64,000 bases of DNA, taken from the NCBI RefSeq assembly GCF_006345805.1, contig NW_021833065.1, forward strand, positions 434,001 to 498,000, in the 5' to 3' direction. Both the position numbers and the translations under genes were made by a program. Positions 13,341 to 48,243 of this stretch are shown one piece after another. The notes beneath the pieces were generated by a model. It did not search any database, was not told the DNA's origin, and saw only the letters and a program-made list of their open reading frames with translations. How positions within the stretch are numbered: the first letter of the stretch is position 1; each line of letters starts with the position of its first letter. Origin of the DNA: Octopus sinensis (taxonomy: Eukaryota).

Positions 13341-15215
13341 CATCATCATCATCGTTTAGCGTCCGCTTTCCATGCTAGCATGGGTTGGACGGTTCAACTG
13401 GGATCTGGGAAGCCAGAAGGCTGCACCAGGCTCAGTCTGCTCTGGCAATGTTTCTACGCCTGGATGCCCTTCCTAACGCCAACCACTCCGTGAGTGTAGT
13501 GGGTGCTTTTTACATGCCACCTGCACAGGTGTCAGACGAGGTTGGCAAATGGCCACAATCGGATGGTGCTTTTTAGTGCCACCAGCACGGGGGCCAGGCG
13601 AGGCTGGCAACGGCCACGAACGGATGGTGCTTTTTACGTGCCACCGGCACGAGGCCAGTCGGGGCAGCGCTGGCAACGGCCACGTTTGGATGATTCTCTT
13701 ACGTGCCACCGGCACTGGTATCACAGCTGCAATTTCCATTGATGTTGATCAATTTCAATTCCGATTCTCACTTGCCTCAACAAGTCTTCACAAGTAGAGT
13801 TTTGTGTCCCAAGAAGGAAAGGTATGCATAAGTGGACTGGCTACATCCTATGTAGAGGCCACGGGTTATGATCTCACTTGTCCTGCCGGGTCTTCTCACG
13901 CACAGCATACTTCCAAAGGTCTCGGTCTCTAGTCATTTCCTCAGTGAGACCTAAAGTTCGAAGGTCGTGCTTCACCAGGTTTTCCTGGGTCTGCCTCTTC
14001 CACAGGTTCCCTCAACCGCTAGGGTGTTGCACTTTTTCATACAACTATCTTCATCCATTCTCGCCACATGACCATACCAGCGCAAACATCTCTCTTGCAC
14101 ACCACAACTGATGCTTCTTAGGTCTAGCTTTTCTCTCAAGGTACTTACACTCTGTCGAGTATGAACACTGACATTACACATCCATTGGAGCATACTGGCT
14201 TCATTTCTTGCGAGCTTACGCATATCCTCAGCAGTCACCCATGTTTCCCTGCCATGTAGCATGGCTGTTCGTACACACGCATCATACAGTCTGCCTTTTA
14301 CTCTGAGCGAGAGGCCTTTTGTCACCAGCAGAGGTAAGAGCTCTCTGAACTTTGCCCAAGCTATTCTTACTCTAGCAGTTACACTTTCAGCACACCCGCC
14401 CCCGCTATTGACTTGGTCACCTAGGTAATGGAAGCTATCAACTATTTCTAGTTTTTCTCCATAGAATGTGGCAGAATTTGGTCTCAGAGCATTTTCAGTG
14501 TTTATTACTCCTGAGCATCTGCCACATACAAAAACTATCTTCCTAGTTAGCCTTCCTTTGACATTGCTGCACCTCTTATGTGTCCATAGCTTACACTTGG
14601 TGCATCTTATAGAGTTTCTACCTACACCTTTTCTATAGATCAAGCAGGGCCATCTACCTGAAGGCGTTTGTGATTTGTCTACCTTCCTACTTATTAGGAC
14701 TTTGGTTTTAGCTAGAGTGACTCTAAGGCCCTTCGATTCTAATCCTTGCTTCCACACCTGAAACTTCTCCTCCAGTTCTGATAGTGACTCAGCAATTAGA
14801 GCAAGGTCATCAGCATAGAGGAGCTCTTAGGGGAATCCTGTCTTGAATTCCTCCGTTATTGCCTGGAGGACTATGATAAATAGGAGGGGCTGAGGACTGA
14901 GCCTAGGTGGACCCCTACCTCTACCCGGAATTCTTCACTGTACTTGCAGAACATTGGCAAATTTTTTCTTATCTGCTTCCCCTCTGGCTAGATAGACCTG
15001 TCTCCTAGCTTCCCTTTTGGCAGTCTGATACAATTCCCTGCTACCACCATTCTTCCAGTCCTTCCAAGCCTGTCTCTTTTCTCTAATAGCCCTGTCTACA
15101 ACATTGTTCCACCACCACGTTACCTTGGGACGAGAGGGGACTTTGCACCAGCCACAGATCTGGTCAGTGGCTCTCAGCAGGTTGTCCCTTAGAAACGTCC
15201 AGTTGTCTTCTATAT
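13341..15215 (-). mobile_element. RTE-clade LINE 3' part (RT C-terminal half, Cys-rich insert, 3' UTR), internally deleted
   Basis: LLYADDL at ~14800-14825; ORF 13972-14757 GLRVTLAKTK..FHYLGD..RLYDACVRTAMLHG..LRWYGHVARM..GRGRPRKTW; (cat)n tail at 13341. Confidence 0.9.
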
Positions 15216-24215: not shown

Positions 24216-24451
24216 TCAAGGAGAATAATTTAATTCAAACTGCTGGCTATCAGCACACACATTGGCATGCATTTCAATAACATCTCCTGGGAATAATTCT
24301 CCACAGAGTGGACAACTAACACAATCAGAGTCCATTTCTTCAAGATCCACTCCAATATCTGTATTAGATGTAGCAGTGTGGTCCCTTGAAGATGAAAACG
24401 AATTTTTTGGAGAGGTTTTGGTATGTCTGGTTTTACCCAGAGCAAAAGAAT
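24216..24451 (-). CDS. XNDC1N: XNDC1N-like protein exon 9 (terminal; UBZ4-type zinc finger)
   Basis: tttcaatag acceptor; DSFALGK...VSCPLCGELFPGDVIEMHANVCADSQQFELNYSP*; minus-strand AATAAA at 24082-24087. Confidence 0.8.
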
Positions 24452-26212
24452 CTATTGAAATAAAAGAAAAAAAAATATTTAAGAATAAATTAAACTTTGC
24501 TGCATAACATACTTTCAAAAAAGAAGTGTAAAAATTCTGTAAGCTTACATTATCTTTGTTCTGAAAACATGCACATATGTATGCCAATTTAGAGTAAGTG
24601 CCTTGCACAGTAAATTTGGAGCTGTTCTAACAATGTAGCTATTTTAGACTGAAACAGATCTTAATACTTTGTCATCATCATCATTGTTTAACATCTGCTT
24701 TCCATGCTGGCATGGGTTGGACAGTTTGCCAGGAGCCTGCATCAGACCTCTGTGTCTGTTTTTATGGCTAGATACCCTTCCTAACACCACCCACCCAGCA
24801 GAATGGACAGTGCTTTTTATGTGCACAAGCAAGGTCAGTTTTGGCATGGTTTTTACAGCTGAATGCTCTTGCAAATGCTAACCACTTTACAGTGTGGACT
24901 GGATGCTTTTTATGTGGCATCAGCACTCACATCATCAAAATTACTTAGTTTAAGGTGACTAGATTTATTCACAAAGATCCAACCTTTTATGATCTCTGAT
25001 AACTTCAATATTTCACAGGCATTCTCATAGGACCATGCCAAACTCCAATTTCACCATCTGTAGTAGAGTGCCAGTCTAGACTAGATGAATGTATGTTGTA
25101 CATCTGATGGTTTATCAATTACCAACATTGGAATTATACGTCATCTTGTACTTAGTGAAAAAGTTATCTCAACACAATAAATCAATGATTTTCATTGTAG
25201 AACCTCTACATATTCAGATGAAATCATATATTTCTTTGGAACAAATGACTGTAACTATTTCCAAAGTAATCGAAGACTATCTTTATATAGTAAGAAAGCT
25301 ATTCAATAACAATAGAAACCATAAATTCTCTAACTGGTATACTCATTTTTGCATGATATAAAGTATCTTTGCAATAGCCCAAAGGATAATGAAAATTTCT
25401 AACAAAGTATATAGCAACCACTAGAACTACATAAAATGTGGTTACTCGGAGACAGCTCTCATTTACTAAGATGTGAAATGCCCTTAGATATAAAAAAAAA
25501 AAAGCAACTTTTTTTTGAAACCCCAGGACAGTCTGAATAAGCAGACCTATGATCAAAGGCATTTCAACTTGACCATGCTGTCTTTCTGAGTACCAGGCAA
25601 AGTATTATCTAAAGTAGCCTTTCTTCTTTAAGAAAGAAGTTTGAATGTTAATTTCAGAATGTTGAGCAACCACATAAAAACTCCCTGAAAGGCTCTTAGA
25701 CTGTAAAGGGTTAGGGCTTGTTAAAATTAATGTAATTCTAAAGATAAAGTAATGATTAAAAAGTGTTTTGCATGGTGTCTGGAAAGTGAAATACAATTAA
25801 ATATATTTAAGATCCTCTCAAATTCATGAAATGAACACAACTAAAATTCAAATTACTTGATTCTAGTTTAGAAGTAGGTGGGTATAAAAAAAAGTATCAT
25901 CATCATAACTTGCTTTTCATGCTGACAGTCTGACAGGAGCTGGAGAGCCAGAGGACTACATTGAGCTCTACTGTCTGCTCTGGTATGATCTTCCTAATGC
26001 CAACCACTTTACAGTGTATTGAGTGCATTTTTTTTTGACACCAGCACACACACACAAAAAAAATATATATATATATATTACAAGATATGTTTCCCTAATA
26101 TTTCACAATAAATAAGCTCATCTTTTCATCAGTTGTTAAGCACTTTTTTTTAGAAACTTCACTTTTAAACATATTACTACTTTGAACATGCTGTGGTTTG
26201 GTTTGAACTTAC

Positions 26213-29519: not shown

Positions 29520-29736
29520 CGTTAAATTCTGTCTTTGAGCAGCTGTTTCTGAAAATAACACATTGTTTTTAGTTTTTCCATCAGATTTGTATCGAGTTTC
29601 AGGAGAATATTTCCCAACATTTTCTTTAGCAGCAAGCAACATTTGAGCAGTTCGAGATAATCCTTGTACCGACTCAGGCCCACCCTCTCCAGAGGATAAT
29701 TTCAATAATTGGGCTTTAAGTTTTTCATTTTCAGAT
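29520..29736 (-). CDS. XNDC1N: XNDC1N-like protein exon 6
   Basis: tttgcag acceptor; SENEKLKAQLLKLSSG..LSRTAQMLLAA..RQNLT; gtatgt donor. Confidence 0.85.
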
Positions 29737-30384
29737 CTGCAAAGAAAGAACAGATAAGTTTATGTTTCAAATAGAAGAAAATTTCAATTAGGCTTCTAAT
29801 TAGATAGCATATTTATATTGAGGCTAATAGACTGCTCAAACTATGTTGCTTATATTATTTCATGACGTTAGACAAGATACATTATCCATCATGCCCGAAT
29901 GACTATAACTTTCTCTCTTATTTCAGGATTAAGTAGGTATAGAGAGCATTCAGCTATAAAAATTTTTCCTCCACAAACAATAGGCAAATATTCTAATCTG
30001 TGAAGTTCACTATAGCCATGCTAGCATGAGAAAATGAATTTAAAACAGACAAATCCTTAATTTCTACCTGCACCAGAGAGGTTAACCCTAGCAGACAACT
30101 TCTCTAGTACCTCATCATCTTTGTTTCCATGCTGGCATAGGTTGGACGGTTTGACTGAGGGCTGGCTAGCCAAAAGGCTGCACCAGACTCCAATCTGATC
30201 TGGCAATGTTTCTAAAGCTGGATGCCCTTCCTAATGCCAACCACTCTGAGAGTGTAGTGATGTTCACTATTAAATTTTCTCAAAAATGCTACTCCAACAA
30301 TTCAAATAAATGTTTAAATTTGTACACCTACCCAACCCATTCTAATACAGAAAAGTTTGTAAAAAAATTTATAAAATAACTTAC

Positions 30385-30464
30385 ACAGAAGGCTGCTTGC
30401 TTTTGAAAAAATGCTGCTGAATCATTTCATTTGATATTTTCTTTGATATATCCTTTTCAACAGT
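30385..30464 (-). CDS. XNDC1N: XNDC1N-like protein exon 5
   Basis: ttcttcag acceptor; TVEKDISKKISNEMIQQHFFKSKQPS; gtaagt donor. Confidence 0.8.
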
Positions 30465-30542
30465 CTGAAGAATGAATTAAAATAAAAAGATCAATAACAA
30501 CCTATAGCTTTTTAGCTGCAAAATATCACTTAGATGATGACA

Positions 30543-30589
<47 letters not shown>

Positions 30590-30669
30590 ATAAATATTAG
30601 GGAATATATCCAAATTTACAGGGAAAAAAAATCAGATTTAGGATTAAATCCAATTTTATAGTAAAATAT

Positions 30670-32419
30670 TATAAAATATTATTTGAGACAAAACCACTAT
30701 TTTGCAAAACAAACAAGGAAAGACTTAATCAAAACATAAAATTTAATAAATAGTCAAAGAAACCGCCACTACAATCGTTTCTTGTCTTGATCGACAATCT
30801 TCAGGTGGACTTCCAATCTAAAAAATCAAAATTTTAAAATATAAAAATAATACTTTTAAATAATTAAAGTATAAATGAAAAAATATAAGTATATAATCCA
30901 TATATAACCTATATATAATCCATATCGAAAATATAGACTAATTACCACGAATTCCCTAAAAAAAACCATGATAAAAAAAAAACTCTTAAAAACATATAAC
31001 GATAAAATCTCCCTTTGCTAAACTCTATAACAACCTATAAAGTAAACCCCCTAACCTAAACATTCACACACAAATACACACACGTAAACCACAGACTCAC
31101 GACTTATACACATACCTATACTAACTTATAACCTCAATATACACCAAAACCCACTCCCTCCCCACACAGACAAATTAACACATACATCCCAAAACCTAAA
31201 TAACAACCCATATACACATTCACACACAAAACACCACTCACACGCAAAACACTCACACACAAAAGATACATATACTCCCTCACATATACGCCTATACATA
31301 CTCACTAAAACTCGACATATACAACAATACTTACACACCCACAAAAAACATTATATACATTTATAAGCTTTAACTCACCTTAGCATCTCTAACAAACAAC
31401 TTGCAGTAACCCAATCCCATTCTCTATACCTACCTCACTACTACACTATTCCATTCACATTCCAAGCAACGCTAGTCCACCACCCGGTTATTCACGTGGC
31501 AAAACGAACACCACTCAAAAATATGAATGAAACAATGTAAAAAAATAACCAACACCTAAAATAGACAAAATACCACGAATTACCTAAAAAAAACCATGAT
31601 AAACCAAAACTCATAAAAGCATATAACGATAAAATCTCCCTTTGCTAAACCCTATAACAAACTTATATAGCAATCCCCCTAACCTAAACATTCACACACA
31701 AAAAACCCACACGTAAACCACAGACCCAAAACTTATACACAAACCTATACTAACTTATAAACCTCAATATACACCAAAAACCACTCCCTCCCCACACAGA
31801 CAATTAACACATACATCCCAAATCCTAAATAACAAACCCAAATACACATTCACACACAAAACACCACACACACAAAACACACATACACAACAGATACATA
31901 TGCTCCCTCACATATACGCATATACATACTCACTAAAACTCGATATATACAACAATATTTAACCCACACTCATACAGATAAATAAATTAATTATACAATT
32001 AAAAACTCACAACCAATCTCATATACATAAACACTCTTATGAAGACAACAATAAATACATCGTAATTAACCAGAATATCAAAAATAACATTATGACATAA
32101 GGATAAATCAAATACATACTTACAATTCAGTTACAAATTATGAAGTGAAATTAGATTTTTAGCCGTTAAAAAACCAAACAAAATTACGTTACCATGGAAA
32201 TAACTAATGTAAAAAAAGAATACGCGCCATAGAAAGTAAACGTCATTCATAGTATGAATGGAGAAATATAATAAATGGAACTAAAAACTATTTCCACGTA
32301 GCAAACCAACGCTACTTAAAAAAATTTATTATGAATGGATTCTTTAAAACTATCATGAAAATCAATTATATACATTTATGAGCTTTAGCTCACCCTAGCA
32401 ACTCTAACAAACAACTTAC
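30670..32419. repeat. Left arm of the ~1.75-kb inverted repeat
   Basis: Reverse complement of 36070-37818 along its whole length, with scattered single-base differences. Confidence 0.95.
30766..30808 (-). ncRNA. Minimal type-I hammerhead ribozyme
   Basis: Minus strand reads CCAC-CUGAAGA-UUGUC-gaucaa-GACAA-GAAA-C-gauu-G-UA-GUGG: intact core with stems I, II and III. Confidence 0.85.
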
Positions 32420-33606
32420 AGTAACCCATACTCAATGCCTACCTCATTACCACCCTAATCCATTCACAATTCCAAACAACTCTAGTCCACCACACGGTAC
32501 AATTCCCACTCTAACTACCCATTCACAATTTCAACGACGTTCCCTTCAACAACTCTACATATAAGCCTCAACATATACACCGGAGATACACTTACACATC
32601 CGTGCGGATGGGTGAGAGTATACATTAAGTGTAGTGATGGGGCTCCCATTTCTAAACACATTTGTACCTGTGTGGTAGTCTCCATGTGTATATTCACGCA
32701 CGGGTATAAATACAGGGGGTACACGCTCACTTCATTTACGTGTACCCCTCACATGTACATATGCATACAATTTTGGCTCGATATATGCAACAATGTAATC
32801 GCGCCCGTATGTGTGAGCATTCACTGGTTGTGCAATTCACCCATCTGGGTGTGATTGTGTGTAAACTTATCACTGTGGAGGTCGAGCTTGATACGTATAT
32901 ATTAGTGTGTATTAGGGGTTGTACGTACTAATTATGTTCATGTGCTTCACTCACTTGAGTCCATGTATGGAAGAATATATTGGGATTACTATGTAGGTGT
33001 AAATAGGGTATGGGGGAGTTTTGTCATTGTATGGGTGTGGGTTTCATTTGTGATGGTGGTTAGGGATGTATGTGTTAATTTATCCATGTGGGGCTGGAGT
33101 GGCCGTTAGGTGCATATGCTGAGGCTCACATGCAAACCCAAGTACAACGAATGAAGTGGGCACTTATAATTGTTATGGTGTGTACTTTATTATAAAAGAC
33201 AATACCCAAATAAAATCTTCAATTCAACCTACAAATAAAAAACAAAAAACAAAGGGATCTTAAACATTCACACATACATACAAAACTCAATAAAAACACC
33301 ACTAAATAACACCCAAAACATATAATATATCCTCAAAATACATAAACAAATGCAAATAAAAATACATAATAAAATAAAATAAATAAAAATAAAAATAAAA
33401 ATAAAAATAAAAATAAAAAATCTAATATAAATTATTAAAGTTTTAACGTACCATAAACTGCTAAATTAATATACATTAAAAATGAACTAATTAAAACAAA
33501 GAAATATCAATAAAGACTAACTATAATTAAATCCTAGACAACATAACCAAAAATATAACATCTAAACTAATTTAAACTAAAATAACCTAAAAGGGAACTA
33601 TTATTG

Positions 33607-36069
33607 CTATTTATCATGAAACTTATTATATAAGTAAAGTAACTTGTGTCTACATTTTATTTTGCGCTCCTCCCCAGTATTAAGTAAATTATCATACTTA
33701 TAAAATAAAATTTCTTTAAACTCATTAGAGCATAAATAACAACAATTAGCTCCTATATTATATGATTTAGTTTTACAAATAATTTCCCATATTAAACTAT
33801 AATTAATATTTAGTGATTTAAGACTCCAAATATACTTACTAAGTCCGGTTGAGTTGATTAAGTTTTTATTTTAAAAGAATTCATATGTTGTGCATTCTTA
33901 GTTTTATTTTTGAGGAAGTAGAACCTATATAAACCGCTTATTGTAATTATTATTCTTAAAGTTATTATCATGTAATGTAACTATACATTTATACACTACA
34001 TCTCGTTAATATCACAATTATTATTTAATATACAATTAGATTTATCTCTACATGTACAATTAATATAAGTCTTATCATTATTAATATTATTATCAAATAA
34101 TTTCTTTTTATAAAAATTATTCAGTTTATATTTATTAAATGAAGAAATAATGTTACCAACATTATTAGTGGTAGAGTAACCAACTCCAAAATTATTAAAA
34201 GAGAAAATGTTTCTATATTTACGATTATCTCTAATAAATAGTTCTATAACATCTAAAATCTCTTTAATAATATTCGTTTTAACTTGATCTCCATAAGGAA
34301 CTATTAACCAAATTTTATTCTTATTAACCTTATTATTATTATCATTATTATAAATATATTTATAATTCTTTATTTTATTAAAATTATTATCAGAATTATA
34401 TCTATGTACAGCATTTAAGGAATTATTAATATTATTAAATTTATCATATAATTATTATAATAATTATTAATTTATTTTTATTTATATTATTCTTATTTAT
34501 ATTATTATTATTATATTTATTATTATTATTATTCTTATTTATATTTTTATCATTTTTATTATTTTTTTTATAATATCTATTATTTTTACCACTAAACGTA
34601 ACAAAATTATAATTATTATTAGAAGTATCTCGAAAATTATCATTTAAATCATTATCGCTAATATTATAAAATTTAATATTCTTATTATAACCTGCCCCTC
34701 TAAGGGCCTCATTATAATAATTAGCATGTTTATTAAAAATCTCTATATCATAAGAGAGTAATGAAATACGTTTACTTATATTATTAATCAACGATTTTTT
34801 AATAGAAAATGGGTGATTACTATTAACATTTATATATCTAAGGTTCTCATTAAGTTTATGATATGGTTGTGTTTTACCTGTAATAAGATTAAAATTAACA
34901 TCTAAATAATTAACATTATAATTCTCCTTATATATAGTAATACGTAAACCATATCTTTTAAAAAGAAACTATATAGTTTTTTCTTATATACTTCTAGATT
35001 CCTATTAGTACAATTCTTTGTAACTAGTAGAAGATCGTCTCTATATAAACCACCCTCTATCTTAAGATTTTCTAATTGGAGTTCAGATAAAAGAAAAATA
35101 CCTACTAAATCAGTAGCCTGTGCAGAATCTGGTGCTCCCATAGGTATATCAAAACAATCTCTAGTATCATTCCTAGCCCATAATTTATTTTTATATTTAA
35201 TTAGCGATTTCCTAGCCAATTTAATTACATTAACTTCTTCCCGTGACATGCCCACTTTATTCATTGCGAAAATAAGCGCTTTATTAAACACAATTTCATT
35301 AATAGAAGAATAATAATTATCTATATCTATTTGAATAAATTTATAACGATTTTTATCTTTAATATTATTAAACCATTTCAATGTATTATTATTACTAAAC
35401 CATAATTTTAAATAATTAAGTTTATTTAACTTATCAATATATTTATCTAAAATAAATTTACTTAATTTACCTAGGTCCGATTTACATGGGCAAATTAATC
35501 TAACTTTAGGGTCTGAATAAAAATTATCTTTATGGTCTTTAAGAGTAATTCTGGGGTGCAGAGGTACATAAGGTTCAGTTTTATTATCCAACTCATATTT
35601 TAACATTACTACTTTAGAGGCCTTATTAATATTATAAAGAATATCATCTGGAACAATTTTATATTTTTTAATTATTTCTTTCCCTAAAAGTTTATCATAT
35701 AATTTAACATCTAATTTATATAAGTTCCTTGTTTTATCAGATTGTACTATAATACTATCCATATTTCTCATATCTTTAATTTTAATTGCTAAATTCCTTA
35801 AATATTCATTATTTCTATTTGGGTATTTATGGAATTCAATATTTTTTACCACCTTCCATATACTATCTTCAAGTAATTGTAATTCTTTATTAAATGGAGG
35901 TTCCTTTCTAGATTTAATTTAGAGGTATAATTATCATTCCTACTATCAATATCATTAATAATAAAAATTATAGTAAAAAGCTTTCCATTTAATTCTAGAA
36001 ATAAAATCTTTAACATTATTAACAAGTTTCAAGATAAATTCCTTTCTAGAAGGAATAGGAATATCTTTC
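33607..36069 (-). pseudogene. PLE reverse transcriptase / GIY-YIG endonuclease ORF, frameshifted and 5'-clipped
   Basis: KDIPIPSRKEF..RIKWKA; SDKTRNLY; TLKDHKDNF..RLICP; DIDNYYSSI; PMGAPDSA; LYRDD; NYLDV; SNHP; CTCRDKSNC linker; VVY..YIGST; LSKYIWSLK; CYLC; KCRH; stop at 33607-33609. Confidence 0.9.
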
Positions 36070-37808
36070 GTAAGTTGTTTGTTAGAGTTGCTAGGGTGAG
36101 CTAAAGCTCATAAATGTATATAATTGATTTTTCATGATAGTTTTTAAAGAATCCATCATAAAAATTTTTTTAAGTACGTTGGTTTGCTACGTGGAAATAG
36201 TTTTTAGTTCCATTTATTATATTTCTCCATTCATACTATGAATGACGTTTACTTTCTATGGCGCGTTTCTTTTTTTACATTAGTTATTTCCATGGTAACG
36301 TAATTTTGTTTGGTTTTTTAACGGCTAAAAATCTAATTTCACTTCATAATTTTAACTGAATTGTAAGTATGTATTTGATTTATCCTTATGTCATAATGTT
36401 ATTTTTGATATTCTGGTTAATTACGATGTATTTATTGTTGTCTTCATAAGAGTGTTTATGTATATGAGATTGGTTGTGAGTTTTTAATTGTATAATTAAT
36501 TTATTTATCTGTATGAGTGTGGGTGTAAATATTGTTGTATATATCGAGTTTTAGTGTGTATGTATATGCGTATATGTGAGGGAGCATATGTATCTGTTGT
36601 GTATGTGTGTTTTGTGTGTGTGTGTGTTTGTGTGTGAATGTGTATTTGGGTTTGTTATTTAGGATTTGGGATGTATGTGTTAATTTGTCTGTGTGGGAGG
36701 GAGTGGTTTTTGGTGTATATTGAGGTTTATAAGTTAGTATAGGTTTGTGTATAAGTTTTGGGTCTGTGGTTTACGTGTGGGTTTTTTGTGTGTGAATGTT
36801 TAGGTTAGGGGGATTGCTATATAAGTTTGTTATAGGGTTTAGCAAAGGGAGATTTTATCGTTATATGCTTTTATGAGTTTTGGTTTATCATGGTTTTTTT
36901 TAGGTAATTCGTGGTATTTTGTCTATTTTAGGTGTTGGTTATTTTTTTACATTGTTTCATTCATATTTTTTGAGTGGTGTTCGTTTTGCCACGTGAATAA
37001 CCGGGTGGTGGACTAGCGTTGCTTGGAATGTGAATGGAATAGTGTAGTAGTGAGGTAGGTATAGAGAATGGGATTGGGTTACTGCAAGTTGTTTGTTAGA
37101 GATGCTAAGGTGAGTTAAAGCTCATAAATGTATATAATGTTTTTTGTGGGTGTGTAAGTATTGTTGTATATGTCGAGTTTAGTGAGTATGTATAGGCGTA
37201 TATGTGAGGGAGTATATGTATCTTTTGTGTGTGAGTGTTTTGCGTGTGAGTGTGTGTTTTGTGTGTGAATGTGTATATGGGTTTGTTATTTAGGTTTTGG
37301 GATGTATGTGTTAATTTGTCTGTGTGGGAGGGAGTGGGTTTTGGTGTATATTGAGGTTTATAAGTTAGTATAGGTATGTGTATAAGTCGTGAGTCTGTGG
37401 TTTACGTGTGTGTATTTGTGTGTGAATGTTTAGGTTAGGGGTTTACTTTATAGGTTTGTTATAGAGTTTAGCAAAGGGAGATTTTATCGTTATATGTTTT
37501 TAAGAGTTTTGTTTTATCATGGTTTTTTTTAGGGAATTCGTGGTAATTAGTCTATATTTTCGATATGGATTATATATAGGTTATATATGGATTATATACT
37601 TATATTTTTTCATTTATACTTTAATTATTTAAAAGTATTATTTTTATATTTTAAAATTTTGATTTTTTAGATTGGAAGTCCACCTGAAGATTGTCGATCA
37701 AGACAAGAAACGATTGTAGTGGCGGTTTCTTTGACTATTTATTAAATTTTATGTTTTGATTAAGTCTTTCCTTGTTTGTTTTGCAAAATAGTGGTTTTGT
37801 CTCAAATA

Positions 37809-37818
<10 letters not shown>
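36070..37818. repeat. Right arm of the ~1.75-kb inverted repeat (inverted pLTR)
   Basis: Starts gtaagttgtttgttagag (revcomp of 32402-32419) and ends ctcaaataatattttata (revcomp of 30670-30687). Confidence 0.95.
37680..37722 (+). ncRNA. Minimal type-I hammerhead ribozyme (inverted-arm copy)
   Basis: ccac ctgaaga ttgtc gatcaa gacaa gaaa c gatt g ta gtgg; predicted cleavage after GUA (A37718). Confidence 0.85.
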
Positions 37819-37853
<35 letters not shown>

Positions 37854-38050
37854 ATATATATATAATCATCATTTAATGTTTTCCATACTGGCATGGGTTA
37901 TATATATATATATATATATATATTTATAAGTATAAAAGTTTTGTTATGTAATTTACTGAGATTTGAACAACTGTTACTTTCAGTTTTAATAAAACTGTTA
38001 TATTAATTTTAATTAACCAAGAATGGTGAACTCTAAAAAAATATTCTTAC

Positions 38051-38199
38051 TTGTTTAGGTGACTGTGATGAAGAATCTACATGTTTACTTTTTATTCTGA
38101 TGAAAGAGAGACCAAACTGGACATTTTTACGATAAATCTGTCGACAAATCACATGAATACGATCCCAAACGCCATTAGAAGCTGCAGGACAAAAATCCT
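38051..38199 (-). CDS. XNDC1N: XNDC1N-like protein exon 4
   Basis: ttttgtag acceptor; KDFCPAASNGVWDRIHVICRQIYRKNVQFGLSFIRIKS (cf. WDR..C.QP..FGL.F of XRCC1-N domains); gtaaga donor. Confidence 0.9.
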
Positions 38200-39013
38200 C
38201 TACAAAATAAAAAAATACAATAGGTAATATTGTATAATATAACAAGCTGGATATCAAAAACTTACATAGCATGGAAAATAGGTTATAATAGCTTTTTAAA
38301 TTAAAGGTTATCAAGTAACTGAATTATTTACCAACATCATAATCATTTTAGGTCTGCTTTGGCATGGGTCACAGTCTGAATCAGTTCTTATCCAAAGCTA
38401 CTGCCCTCCTAGATGCTCTCCTATATTCTAATTCTTTTGGCATGGTTTCTCAGTGGGTGTCCTTACTAGCATCAACTACTTTACAGAGTGTACTGAGAGT
38501 GTTTTATTCTGGAATCAGCACTTGCAGGGTTACTGAGTATCCTGCAAGGTCAAAGAGTCCCGAGTCCTATTATCTTCATTTGTTCGAGAATGAAGAGGGT
38601 GAATGGAAGAGGAGATAACAGAAGATGAACTATACAGACTAAAAGAAGAGGGGACATGAAGAAAACAGAGTGACTAGGGTGAGGTGGTGAGGAGGGAGTA
38701 ATGGAAAAGACACAATAACAAGAAATATAGGAGAGAAACAGTGATGTCAGCTACATGCTTAATAGTAAGAAAAACAGTGATGAATGTCAATTATGAGTGA
38801 CTTGTGGGGAGGTGTGATGACTGTCAGTAGAGAAAGATAATGGTGCGGTGTATCACATACAGAAGTGATGCAAGCTTTCATTACACAGGAATCATGAGTG
38901 AGAGAAATAGGAAGTGATAAAGATGGTAGTAGTATGGAAAGATCCAATACCATCCCACTTTGCACAGGCAGCCTGGTAGAGTGAATAGGAGAGAGGCTGA
39001 ATGTTAGAAAGAT

Positions 39014-39247: not shown

Positions 39248-40897
39248 AATGTTAGAGAGATGAGTGTTGAAGAGGCAGCAGATGGAGGCTTAACAAGGAA
39301 GATAATAGATGAGGGACTATGTACATGCATCACACATTCTGGTTTCCACACCTATCACCATATAAGCTTGTATTATTTCCAGCAAAGTGATCAAGGAAGA
39401 AATAATTGGGATGTATTGATTGAAACTATCTATAACTATTCTATTTCTTCATTTAAGAATGCTTGTTCAAATATCTCCAACAACTGGATGTATCCACAAT
39501 TTATGAACCTAAACTTCATTGATAATTTTATTTTAATATTTTTTTTTGATGATATCTCATGAAGATCAAATAACCCAGTTTATACCGTTAAGCTCAAAAC
39601 TAGGCTACATGTAATATAGTAAAAAGCTCATTAATGCAATATTTACAATATTCTTATTACAATGTTATTAGAAACATGTATTAGTCTTAAATAGCTTACA
39701 TACCACATTCCTAATATCTAGAATAGTTTCTGTTTACTAAGATGAGTCAAATATTTCCTGGTCTTGATTGACACAAAGTAACATTTTTAATTATACTCTT
39801 GAGAAAGATATAAACATTACAATATTGCATTTCGCCTTCCTAAAATATATACCCTTTGGTAAAAATATAACAGGGCTTTTATGTGCTTGCCCGGTTAAAA
39901 ACAGCAGCCAATTCTCTCTCAAAGCATACTCTACTACATTAAAAAAAAAAGATTTTGACCCACTAGGGTACAATCACCATCATCATAGTTTAACGTCCGC
40001 TTTCCATGCTGGCATGGGTTGGACAGCTTGACTGAGAACTGGTAAGCCAGGAGGCTGCACCCAGCTCCTATCTTATCTGGCTAGGTTTCTACGGCTGGAT
40101 ATGTGCCACCAGCATGGGACCAGTCAGGCAGCACTAGCAAAAATATAAAACTGGGCTCATGCACTTGGCTAGAATACTGTACTGTTAGTAGTAGAAAGAT
40201 TTCTAGAAAAAAACACCTGATCCAACAATAAAAACACATTCCACTTACACTTTATATGGTTAAATGAATGTAAAACAGTAAAAATAAAAAAATATACTTA
40301 ATCCTATTCCACACACAAAAAAACTGGTAGTAATGCAAAGAATACAAGCATGCAATTAGAATTTAGTATTTTGCCTAAAATTATTCAAATGTTGCAACTA
40401 TTTTTTTTTTTACCAAAGCTTTAATGCATTTTACTGTGCTATTCTGAGTAATTTTGGCAAATTTTTACATTTGAATTGTTAGAACACACAAATAGTTTCA
40501 ATGTGAAGCAAATACAAAGTTATGTAGCACAAAATATGAATAGGTTATCAGTAATGTGAAAATTGTAACTTCACAGTTATAGCTCAATTAGAATGACAAT
40601 TTTTTTTGACTAAGTCAATTTTGCAACAATGCTATTTCTTTTGACTCTGAAAATATTTATATTCAATTCAACAAAATTTGAAATCAGAGCACTGAAGCAC
40701 AGAAGACAACAATGAAGCACCAAATCTTGAATATCAGCTGGGTAAAATCTAGAATATAAGGAAACATGACAGCAACAATTTGTCTACAACCAAAGTGACA
40801 ACACCATTTTCTCTCTTCTTTGCTCAAAGAAAAGACAAGGCATGAAATGTTAGATCCCTTACTCTTCACAGCAATTAAAAGTCAAATTTTTACTTAC

Positions 40898-41939: not shown

Positions 41940-42385
41940 CATCATCATTTAACGTCCGCTTTCCATGCTAGCATGGGTTGGACGGTTCAACTGGGGTCTG
42001 GCAAGCCCGAAGGCTGCACCAGGCCAGTCAGATCTGGCAGTGTTTCTACAGCTGGATGCCCTTCCTAACGCCAATCACTCCGAGAGTGTAGTGGGTGATT
42101 TTATGTGCCACCGACACAGGTGCCAGACGAGGCTGGCAGACGGCCATGCTCGGATGGTGTTTTTTATGTGCCACCGACACAGGTGCCAGACGAGGCTGGC
42201 AGACGGCCACGCTCGGATGGTGTTTTTTATGTGCCACCGACACAGGTGCCAGACGAGGCTGGCAGACGGCCACGCTCGGATGGTGTTTTTTATGTGCCAC
42301 CGACACAGGTGCCAGACGAGGCTGGCGAACAGCCACGATTGGATGGTGTTTGTTACGTGCCCACAGCACGGAGGCCAGTCGATGT
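41940..42385 (-). mobile_element. RTE 3' UTR copy with a 4 x 63-bp tandem array (42103-42354)
   Basis: (cat)n tail; unit atgtgccaccgacacaggtgccagacgaggctggcagacggccacgctcggatggtgtttttt starts at 42103, 42166, 42229, 42292. Confidence 0.9.
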
Positions 42386-43055
42386 AACAAAAAATAAAAA
42401 TCATGTTAAGTGTCATTTTAAATTTACACTAATATAGGAAATTTAATAGAACATATGATTCTGTACAGTTGTGTTAGGAGCATAACTTGAGTATGTTATG
42501 CAAGGATAAAAACATAATGTGGAACAAAATTTTGATAGAAAGATATAATGAAAATAAATGAATGACAATGCATGTGAGAAAATAAAGGGAATGAAAAAAA
42601 TGTGTTAATACAGAATTAAGGCTATAAGGGAAATATTTTTATCAAGATGCACATTCTGTTACAAATGATTAGTAGAGATGCAAATACAGGAAGCACTGTC
42701 CTAGTTTTATTGTTGAACTTATGCCAACATGGACATTCAGTGATGAAGATGAATGTTATTATAATTAATTCTTCCAGCAATTGGTGTGAAAAAAATTAAT
42801 TTTTTTTAGAGACCTTTTAATTTTTACACAGTACATACAATCTATTTTCAGAGTTGATCTGTTGTCAGAAAGGTAAACCAGCTTTAAGAGCCAAGTTTCC
42901 ACTATTTGAATGAAGATAAAGGGATGAAGTGAAGAGAGCAGATTTTTCTAAATTATATTCTGTACTCAAGTTGTTCCCATTGATTGAAATAGATAGAACT
43001 ATTCAGTTAAAATAGGTAAAAAAAAAATGATTGTCAGAACCAAAAATAGTCTCAC

Positions 43056-43194
43056 CAATATCTAAATACGATATCACAGATGCTTGATCCAACTGAAATA
43101 CTCCTTCCATTATTCCAGTTCTATCTTTGGGATTAGACAGCCATTTTTTGAAACATCCATCCTTTAGAAGGTTTTGCACGGAATGGGTTTCATC
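43056..43194 (-). CDS. XNDC1N: XNDC1N-like protein exon 2
   Basis: ctgcag acceptor; DETHSVQNLLKDGCFKKWLSNPKDRTGIMEGVFQLDQASVISYLDI; G|gtgaga donor. Confidence 0.9.
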
Positions 43195-43981
43195 CTGCAG
43201 AAATTGAAGAAAACAATACTATTTATATACCTTATTTTACCTTCTAATTTTTTCCTAGCATTCAGATGATTTCACCAGAACTACACCTATGTTTATTTCT
43301 TTTGTTATATTCAGGAAGCTTGCATCTAGAAAGCTTTTTATGGTTATTTCAAATTTTCGTAAGACAGCTATTTCTTTTCCAAAGTTGATGATATTGCTTA
43401 TCTTTTTCTTTCATTCCAGTAATCCTGAGAACAAACTCAGTAATTTATTAATATTTTCTCAAAAGAATCTTATGAATTCTGTATAATGATTTCATATTTT
43501 ATCTTTAAAGGATTGCAAAAGATATGACCATTGCTCCTTTACTGCAGACTAAATATAATCAAACAAAATGTGCATATTATTAAGAGATCCTGAGGTCTCA
43601 TTAAAGAATGACAACTGGTTCATTTAATCTCCATCCCATCCAAAAAAAAAAAGTTTTCATAGGTCTAAGTGATAATCTCACCATATGTATTAAAAAGAAT
43701 GTACTTTAATTATGGTACAAAATGAAAGCCAAAACCACATTCTTGTATATGATTCAAATACAAATGTATGATTTCTTAGTTACTTTTTCCAATTTCAATT
43801 TAATTTTCTCAAAGAATGCATCCTTTTTAATTTATATTTCTTTTCGACTTTTCTTTTATGGTATCAACAAGTCTACTATGCCTGTGCCTTGAGCCACTCA
43901 TTTCATCACAATATCACTTATTCAATAGGAAAGCAACAATCCAAATCACTTTAAAAGCCTATGGTAATTGTCCATAGTATT

Positions 43982-47431: not shown

Positions 47432-48243
47432 ATCATCATCATCATCATTGTTTAATGTCCGCTTTCCATGCTAGCATGGGTTGAATGATTTGACTGAGGA
47501 CTGGCGAACCAGATGGCTGCACCAGACTCCAATCTTGATCTGGTAGAGTTTCTACAGCTGGATGCCCTTTCTAACGCCAACCACTCCGAGAATGTAGTGA
47601 ATGCTTTTACGTGCCACCAGCATGAGGGCCAGTCAAGCGGTACTGGCAACGGCCACACTCAAATGGTTTTTTTTACGTGCCACCTGCACAGAAGCCAGTC
47701 CAGTGGCACTGGCAACGACCTCGATCGAATGTTTTTCACATGCCACTGGCACAAGTGCCAGTAAGACAACGCTGATAATAGTCATGCTTGAATGGTGCTT
47801 TTTACGTACCACTGGCATGGAAGCCAGATAGCCACTCTGGCAATGATCACATTCGGATGGTGCTCTTAGCGCTCCACTAGCACAGATGCCAGTCATCGAA
47901 TTTGATTTCGATTTCGGTTTCACTCGCCTCAACAGGTCTTCGCAAGCAGAGTTTAGGGTCCAATGAAGGAAAGGTACATATAAGTGGGCTGGTTACACCC
48001 CTGGCATAGACCACGAGGTTATGGTCTCATTTGGCTTGCCAGGTGTTCTCAAGCACAGCATATTTCCAAAAGTCTCAGTCATTGCCTCGGTGAGGCCTAA
48101 TGTTCGCAGGTCATGCTTCACCACTTCATCCCAGGTCTTCCTGGGTTTACCTCTTCCACAGATTCCCTCAACCACTAGGGTGTGACACTTTTTCACACAG
48201 CTATCCTCATCCATTCTTGCTACATGACCATACCAGCGCAGTC
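47432..48243 (-). mobile_element. RTE LINE 3' end (RT C-terminus + UTR)
   Basis: MDEDSCVKKCHTLVVEGICGRGKPRKTWDEVV; (cat)n tail. Confidence 0.85.

Follow-up and report, generated by a model that had tools for sequence, protein, structure and literature searches.

Mirrored hammerhead motifs of a Penelope-like element in an octopus intron, and spliced family copies that point to its RNA template

The stretch of DNA analysed here (the window, 64,000 nucleotides of Octopus sinensis contig NW_021833065.1; all positions are those of the window) contains a minus-strand gene with an XRCC1_N domain, one intron of which is filled almost entirely by a Penelope-like element (PLE). This insertion carries two copies of a 43-nt hammerhead ribozyme motif, one on each strand. 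Both motifs come from one and the same terminal repeat of a single young PLE, found once in its body and once in an inverted arm, and hundreds of short, intron-less sister copies in the genome likely record which RNA such elements copy. The locus is organised as follows (RT stands for reverse transcriptase, ORF for open reading frame and pLTR for pseudo-long terminal repeat).

30586..37818, no strand assigned: whole insertion, a 5'-truncated Hydra-type PLE with an inverted 3' arm in (TA)n, covering 7,233 nt of a host intron of 7,586 nt
30586..30669, minus strand: one-sided tail of ~80 nt, not in the inverted arm
30766..30808, minus strand: minimal type-I hammerhead in sense orientation for both element and host pre-mRNA, lying 9 nt past the element's splice acceptor, predicted cut 30770/30769
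30818..32123, minus strand: pLTR GT-AG intron of 1,306 nt, kept in the window copy and precisely missing from at least 703 genomic copies
32124..32146, minus strand: putative transcription start and 23-nt first pLTR exon, placed by the 5' ends of spliced genomic copies; the start, 32146, lies in an initiator-like (Inr-like) TCACTT, and a GTAAGT donor comes next
33607..36069, minus strand: ORF for RT and C-terminal GIY-YIG, interrupted by stops and frameshifts, start missing
36070..37818, plus strand: inverted arm, a copy of 32419-30670 without the tail, with mirrored start site 36341, donor 36363 and acceptor 37670
37680..37722, plus strand: mirror hammerhead, antisense in the host pre-mRNA, where it is the complement of the other copy and not a ribozyme
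38051..38199, minus strand: host exon with the XRCC1_N domain, preceding the intron, whose donor GT is at 38050
30385..30464, minus strand: host exon downstream of the intron, acceptor AG ending at 30465
29520..29736, minus strand: next host exon, from RNA-type contigs

The insertion and its host intron

A preliminary description of this DNA had drawn attention to the motif pair, and our analysis confirmed its coordinates, the identity of the two sequences and their anatomy: stem I CCAC/GTGG, core CUGAAGA...GAAA, stem II TTGTC/GACAA, helix III AC-GATT-GT and the GUA triplet. The cut predicted for the minus copy falls where it had been placed, and 301 nt separate the end of this copy from the host acceptor at 30465, in agreement with the earlier figure of about 300 nt. 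With a CUGANGA / GAAA / NUH core and stems I and II, the motif corresponds to the definition of a type-I hammerhead, and its assignment to the minimal type-I hammerheads of PLE terminal repeats is supported. Rfam searches returned nothing at gathering score in the whole window and no hammerhead at E<=10 in 37400-37900; this silence is not evidence against the motif, because minimal motifs escape the Rfam models. Indeed, the exact 43-mer occurs 1,607 times in the 2.72-Gb genome and its reversed control not once, so the motif is not a chance match; when a 30-nt part of the motif is sought with a free loop, the genome-wide count is 2,495. Identity extends well beyond the motifs, over 1,765 nt (30666-32419 against 37823-36070, 98.6%, with 3 substitutions and 22 one-base indels), and the two motifs are therefore one sequence present twice.

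Pfam recognises XRCC1_N in the host gene at 43006-43218 (E 3.8e-7) and 38036-38323 (E 7.4e-9), both on the minus strand, and an atlas match of 0.94 links it to an XRCC1_N cluster. One RNA-type contig joins 38199-38051, 30464-30385 and 29736-29520, which fixes the host intron at 38050-30465; RNA-type evidence here means unstranded contigs, no run being recorded as RNA. The element makes up 95% of this intron. The preliminary description had called the host XNDC1N-like and the exon downstream of the intron its fifth: a minus-strand gene with an XRCC1_N domain is borne out, and the name and the exon number are plausible. No BRCT match was found by Pfam in the downstream host exons tested, a result in better keeping with an XNDC1N-like gene than with XRCC1. 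The last host exon is likely at 24219-24626 (minus strand), where a C2HC zinc-finger-like motif matches Pfam at E 0.03, below the cut-off.

The limits of the insertion are approximate, as both ends merge into (TA)n, also where a target-site duplication would stand, and no empty allele was seen; (TA)n is the insertion site in the window and in 20 of 20 fetched loci. Natural tandem copies (L112-L115, L119-L121, L125) have a unit of ~5.6 kb, in which the tail goes on for another 91 nt, across the ORF start, as far as the position that corresponds to 36069. The hallmarks of PLEs are thus found in the family: pLTRs from partial tandems in these tandem loci, and an inverted 5'-truncated copy with a single-sided tail in the window. 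Without an ORF start and without an upstream sense pLTR, the window copy was dead on arrival. The pLTR intron contains a direct duplication ~630 nt apart (30915-31369 against 31545-32007, 87-90% identity), and upstream of the start site, in the spacer, there is an older inverted copy of the intron repeat (32878-33124 against 31132-31376, 65%), which by its sequence would be the trace of earlier inversion events. In some subfamilies the start-site/exon-1 segment occurs two to three times, 830-1,020 nt apart (e.g. C1:78171088/78171916, C1:151012663-151014688), and L112-L113 is a complex insertion with at least two full tandem units on either side of the inversion.

The ORF is a single frame with an RT and a GIY-YIG endonuclease, as in endonuclease-bearing (EN+) PLEs, recognised by alignment and by YRDD and YIG; it is broken in the window copy, and in natural tandem copies it starts ~16 codons earlier. 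Its translation holds KWK, DKT, YRDD, CxCx5C, YIG, CxxC and CxH, and its pieces align along the full-length relatives P0001, P0003 and P0009 (tblastn, E down to 1e-71; one search to P0001 gave E 9.6e-54). Several relatives carry a precomputed PF00078; a Pfam search of five ORF pieces from the window gave no RT or GIY-YIG match. The Hydra clade is defined by a C-terminal endonuclease, DKT, a CxCx5C linker, CxxC, CxH, no CCHH, (TA)n insertion and a size generally <3 kb (PMC8557442). In the present ORF, QSDKTRNLY, CTCRDKSNC, CYLC and CRH follow the RT in this order, the endonuclease is C-terminal, and CCHH was not seen, as judged by eye on a broken translation. The N-terminal motif is RIKWKA, with K for the R of RWK (IKWKI in relative P0011, MRWKA in other relatives). 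The unit of ~5.6 kb, with an ORF region of ~2.5 kb, exceeds the size that the source gives as a tendency and not as a strict criterion. We therefore describe the element as a PLE with Hydra-clade motifs, a placement that would be firmer with a tree than with motifs. The Naiad clade, our first guess, was rejected: Naiads have an N-terminal endonuclease and are without canonical hammerheads.

The family is young, because among 20 long stretches fetched the nearest ORF differs by only 2 substitutions in 2,469 nt. Gap openings number 13-28 in every copy, so long-read errors may account for many of the frame breaks. Octopus bimaculoides P0017 (XP_014774057.1) is the one named protein that matched the ORF; its gene model joins a piece of the family RT (65% identity, 30% of the query) to PF00685 sulfotransferase sequence and is likely a mis-annotation or an exonised fragment. 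An Asn-rich low-complexity stretch lies between RT and linker at 34450-34620 (minus strand) and resembles the N-rich inserts of Adineta Penelopes (PMC3846280); in relative P0012 the N-rich stretch is further along the linker.

Spliced copies of the family

Eighteen close pairs of hammerheads, picked for their short gaps, are without the sequence found upstream of the window hammerhead. Where they can be read, they join 32146-32124 (23 nt, before GTAAGT in the window) directly to 30817, which follows TTTTTTAG. The sequence that they are missing is exactly the GT-AG intron. The spliced junction pattern was found in at least 703 genomic copies, a lower bound in that one exon variant is unmatched by the pattern, and the retained acceptor context in 692. 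The spliced arms that reach 32146 number 256. Among 30 fetched spliced loci that reach the start site, 25 stop at 32146, and 16 of these 25 are preceded by G where the element has C. A further 40 spliced loci, not selected for length, gave the same picture: none of 58 arms passes 32146, and all four exact ends follow G. On the other hand, 583 copies have sequence upstream of 32146, and 93 of the first 100 of these are unspliced. Each of the three exon-1 variants is represented among spliced and among unspliced copies, which indicates that splicing was captured repeatedly, and the spliced cDNAs all ran through an intact hammerhead. In one locus (L041:444-515) both arms of the stub have their junction 9 nt upstream of the acceptor used elsewhere, possibly through an alternative 3' splice site.

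Together, the spliced stubs and the putative start site point to a capped, spliced, sense RNA as the template. Several observations weigh against so simple a picture. Five of the 30 spliced loci (in 2 clusters) continue upstream of 32146, and 7 of the first 100 upstream-reaching rows are spliced, so splicing is not strictly cap-limited. An extra G arising from copying of the cap is known from work on long interspersed elements (LINEs). Most of the extra Gs seen here can come from the partner arm and only three are clearly untemplated (L139, L160, L188), so that a cap origin is suggestive only. Moreover, the start site, the cap and the splicing are all read from DNA copies alone.

Alternatively, the intron-less short copies could be a self-amplifying non-autonomous deletion derivative, comparable to a short interspersed element (SINE) or a miniature inverted-repeat transposable element (MITE), rather than copies of spliced RNA. 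The short copies are numerous and uniform in size, and since the Penelope of D. virilis has an internal promoter (PMC2377424), stubs could be transcribed. However, the missing piece runs exactly from GT to AG, it is lost in each of the three subfamily variants of exon 1, which long copies carry too, and the junctions differ by locus (arm ends include 10-23 nt of exon 1), unlike those of a fixed MITE. In addition, the anole RT needs ORF sequence beyond the tail (PMC11167929), and the stubs are without such sequence. A deletion derivative is accordingly an improbable source of these copies, and we retain copying of spliced RNA.

Mirror arms and their origin

The preliminary description had singled out the mirror pair; that the pair is special is not supported by the rest of the family. 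Among the first 100 exact copies listed, all 26 opposite-strand neighbours within 15 kb share the polarity of the window pair, 18 of them being <150 nt apart, and a single tail per mirror locus was found in 18 of 18 loci (chosen for short gaps) and in 16 of 18 of a second sample. Mirror junctions inside the hammerhead or at its cut are represented by four rows from three loci, one of them at the cut site. Inverted 5' copies and one-sided tails have been described for PLEs (PMC8557442), and in Penelope-13_HM an inverted 5' copy gives a sense and antisense hammerhead pair (PMC8557442 supplement); opposite-strand pairs of minimal hammerheads are reported in Schistosoma (PMC4209133), and inverted pLTRs whose junctions are palindromic are on record as well (PMC3846280). 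The mirror arrangement is therefore the family norm, that of the usual inverted-pLTR insertion and already published for PLEs, and the mirrored hammerheads are likely a by-product of the insertion mode.

One might object that the mirror arm is an assembly artefact, namely a palindromic long-read chimera. Most differences between the arms are one-base indels, typical of long-read error, and the point 36069/36070 is bridged by none of the 32 short-read contig pieces listed (four DNA-type runs, 35960-36180; a further 149 pieces fell outside the list). Nevertheless, the unique flanks carry consecutive host exons in the correct order, the tail stands on one side only, three substitutions separate the arms, and both the polarity of the 26 pairs and the published PLE norm agree with the structure. 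We give an artefact hardly any credence.

How the two arms arose is less clear-cut. In place of two primed cDNAs, the inverted arm could stem from fold-back self-priming of a single cDNA, or from an antisense RNA template, which was proposed for head-to-head palindromes and intron retention and left undecided where the proposal is made (PMC3846280). Diagnostic bases are common to both arms in 29 of 30 loci, as are private bases, compared with ~36% expected from random pairing of the observed subfamilies (computed from counts), and short microhomology is present at many arm junctions. The matching arms show a single source, which fold-back copying fits as well, and this counts against our preference for two cDNAs. 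That preference comes from the single tail of each pair, from the fact that either arm may be the longer (the tail arm in 5 loci, the tailless arm in 7) and from L035, a spacer-less palindrome with both arms complete. Furthermore, both target strands are extended in vitro (PMC11167929). As for an antisense RNA, it cannot yield the present copies, because they are spliced at sense-strand GT-AG and end at the sense start site. We regard a fold-back origin as rather unlikely, though it is the strongest of the competing explanations, and continue with two cDNAs.

We propose that RNA polymerase II would start at 32146 in the upstream pLTR of a tandem source copy, and that the cap-proximal intron would be spliced out and its counterpart in the downstream pLTR mostly kept. 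The element protein would nick both (TA)n strands, and RT would start at two sites ~80 nt apart just past the pLTR, one giving the arm end and the other the tail end. For the anole PLE in vitro, both strands are extended, there are two RT starts, uncut RNA is a substrate, and cleavage needs protein (PMC11167929). Starts at the first pLTR would produce the spliced palindromic stubs, ~250 + 170 nt, stopping at the capped end; starts at the downstream pLTR would produce long intron-bearing copies, and the two cDNAs of the window copy would have stopped after ~5.5 kb and 1.75 kb. The hammerhead would serve the element, likely by processing tandem precursors and possibly with the assistance of protein, most templates being copied uncut.

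The hammerhead in RNA and related systems

In computed folds, the probability of the full monomer hammerhead is 0.023 for the bare motif, 0.0015 to 4e-6 in unspliced context and 0.004 in spliced context. By contrast, the minimum free energy co-fold of two 43-mers is a double-hammerhead dimer of -21.4 kcal/mol with an 8-bp intermolecular helix III, in line with the earlier suggestion that the motif is suited to cleavage as a dimer. Helix III is self-complementary, its 8-bp self-duplex being worth -5.8 kcal/mol with the GATT loop and -6.4 kcal/mol with the AATT loop; the first 100 of the 2,495 copies comprise 69 GATT and 31 AATT loops, all 100 self-complementary. This variation is weak as covariation, because it is a single change at a CpG. 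Stem II is tgcc/ggca in the Hydra-clade table and tgtc/gaca here, a paired change found by eye between families, the present one being too young to vary. A Schistosoma monomer did not cut and its dimers cut weakly (PMC4209133), and the anole element hammerhead cut only with its own protein and was not needed for insertion (PMC11167929). The motif is thus likely a dimer-dependent hammerhead, as the folds predict.

Signs of cutting were also sought in genomic copies, 2,072 of which have the A of the cut-site triplet in place. Copies starting exactly at the cut site account for 15 rows (14 independent) of 23 candidates, compared with 8/22 and 7/12 at the neighbouring positions, and this pile-up of 5' ends at the cut site relative to its neighbours is not significant (p 0.07). 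In 12 of the 15 rows (L055-L076) a T stands just before the start, often as TT to TTTT; such bases could have been added without a template where the RNA was cut. Cut-site ends at about twice their neighbours, mostly after T or TT, mean that some cut RNA may be copied, which tempers the proposal that templates are copied uncut.

We then asked whether cutting of the host pre-mRNA by the sense hammerhead might be frequent enough to reduce or control expression of the XRCC1_N-domain gene, a role of the kind put forward for the CPEB3 ribozyme in its intron. The core is intact, the orientation is sense, the host acceptor is near, family RNA-type contigs could serve as trans partners, and there is the small excess of genomic copies beginning at the cut site. 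However, the motif would require a dimer (monomer fold P<=0.004 in context), and the host pre-mRNA holds one sense hammerhead only, without a dimer partner in cis. The polymerase reaches its perfect complement 7 kb sooner, and 1.6 kb of the arms can already have zipped up when the motif emerges; the computed duplex energies are -79 kcal/mol over 43 nt and -453 kcal/mol over 300 nt. In the host contig the exons on both sides of the intron are joined, and an unstranded family RNA-type contig of depth 73 runs from the element acceptor through the cut site; either contig may come from an animal that does not carry the insertion. Finally, the insertion is young, its motif is identical to the 1,607 genomic copies, and no locus-specific tuning was seen. 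The suggestion in the preliminary description that the host transcript could be cut is thus not supported as a likely event: the sense hammerhead is predicted to stay in a long hairpin and would rarely cut host RNA, and regulation of the host gene by it is very unlikely.

Altogether, we are largely confident in the following reading. The two motifs are the terminal repeat of one young Hydra-motif PLE, in its body and in its inverted arm, likely from two cDNAs primed from cut (TA)n and joined head to head; the sense copy would be held in a long hairpin and rarely cut host RNA. The sequences themselves show the arms, the single-sided tail, the broken ORF, the (TA)n flanks, the copy numbers and the spliced and unspliced classes; the steps of transcription, priming and joining are our proposal.

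The insertion also introduces an outward-facing pair of putative promoter, donor and acceptor, at 32146 (minus strand) and 36341 (plus strand). One such promoter could drive RNA into the downstream host exon and the other antisense RNA into the upstream exon, and the host donor could splice to the element acceptor at 30818; among the RNA-type contig matches listed, no joint links element splice sites or promoters to host exons. Heavy A-to-I editing is known for the octopus group. At 32770-32823 four A>G differences occur in one RNA-type contig of low depth (3.85) and are missing from the contigs of another run; they are possibly A-to-I editing of a family transcript, or error. Elsewhere, the window contains a tandem array at 42036-42413 (63-nt unit, ~5-6 copies), a LINE-type RT fragment at 13975-14826 (minus strand; Pfam RVT_1 E 1.7e-5 and a weak PHD match) with related pieces near 47996-48241, and copies of a highly abundant short interspersed repeat that has no relation to the PLE, at 30124-30259, 40001-40100 and 41960-42093.

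The element resembles the Hydra-clade PLEs described by Craig et al. 2021 (PMC8557442), such as Penelope-13_HM and Hydra-1_Obim, in its RT followed by GIY-YIG, its DKT, CxCx5C, CxxC and CxH motifs, its (TA)n target and its 3' hammerhead with a 4-bp stem I and a self-complementary helix III; it shares with Penelope-13_HM the sense and antisense hammerhead pair. It differs from them by KWK in place of RWK, by a tail of ~80 nt instead of 30-40, and by its ~5.6 kb against <3 kb, which is due to a 1.46-kb spacer and the 1.3-kb pLTR intron; the clade section and table of that source mention no intron in Hydra families. Its hammerhead sequence is not that of Hydra-1_Obim, the sole octopus Hydra family in the table, and in contrast to Hydra-clade PLEs it is present here in thousands of near-identical copies.

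Like published PLE minimal hammerheads, the motif is of type I with a short stem I, a palindromic helix III, a predicted dimer and an intron end adjoining helix I, and it occurs as opposite-strand pairs and dispersed singles, with the high identity of a recently active family, as in D. virilis. Stem II has 4-5 bp here and 7-8 there, and opposite-strand pairs are often only 27-72 nt apart. Unlike in the published cases, splicing leaves the motif unchanged, because the acceptor lies 9 nt before helix I. An Inr-like start, a short first exon and a spliceosomal pLTR intron kept in long copies are shared with D. virilis Penelope (Schostak et al. 2008, PMC2377424) and Chlamys-3_cRei; the intron measures 1,306 nt here against 75 and 398, and roughly half the genomic copies that could be typed have lost it here, a class for which the literature searched gave no report. 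The Anolis PAc Poseidon element (Frangieh et al. 2024, PMC11167929) is similar in its two RT starts bounding the tail, its AT-rich target and its uncut template RNA, but it belongs to another clade, its hammerhead overlaps the ORF start whereas ours lies >200 nt upstream of it, and the evidence is in vitro there and genomic here.

Two further systems are instructive. The CPEB3 ribozyme is single-copy, conserved, active as a monomer and of the hepatitis delta virus (HDV) type, whereas the window motif belongs to a young repeat, would depend on a dimer and has its own antisense as pairing partner. What the two have in common is a self-cleaving-type motif in a host intron near the downstream exon (PMC10919898). 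Non-LTR retrozymes are head-to-tail tandems of short non-coding units, each with a hammerhead (bioRxiv 2026.07.22.740005); the short copies here stand alone or in head-to-head pairs, the latter orientation being that of 18 of 18 close pairs, and tandem neighbours are mostly whole ORF-bearing units, so we rejected this class.

What is known already is the hammerhead type, the kind of element and the mirror architecture; what is new is the family with Hydra-clade motifs and its spliced stubs. The literature searched contains no report of a large spliced class of PLE copies or of the present family; older papers and supplements may hold one. The keeping of introns by PLEs despite passage through RNA, the polarity of the template and the role of the hammerhead are stated as open in PMC3846280, PMC8557442 and PMC4209133. 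We speculate, on a balance of evidence that could still tip either way, that the stubs of this family are a natural 5'-RACE (rapid amplification of cDNA ends) of Penelope retrotransposition. Palindromic stubs would come from capped spliced sense mRNA read through an uncut hammerhead, and copies from the downstream pLTR would keep the intron. The "intron retention" of PLEs would then be position-dependent splicing, in which only the cap-proximal copy is removed and promoter-bearing daughters therefore keep theirs; antisense self-priming would be excluded for this family, and hammerhead cleavage would be largely dispensable for insertion in vivo.

Mirror hammerheads of this kind are the signature of an inverted-pLTR Penelope insertion, and a site that bears them should not be taken for a regulatory ribozyme of the host. 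With ~700 spliced and ~700 unspliced typed copies, a sharp putative start and near-identical members, questions of PLE replication become countable in one genome. A family that is Hydra-type by its motifs appears to have expanded recently to thousands of copies in the octopus genome, placing long perfect hairpins in introns.

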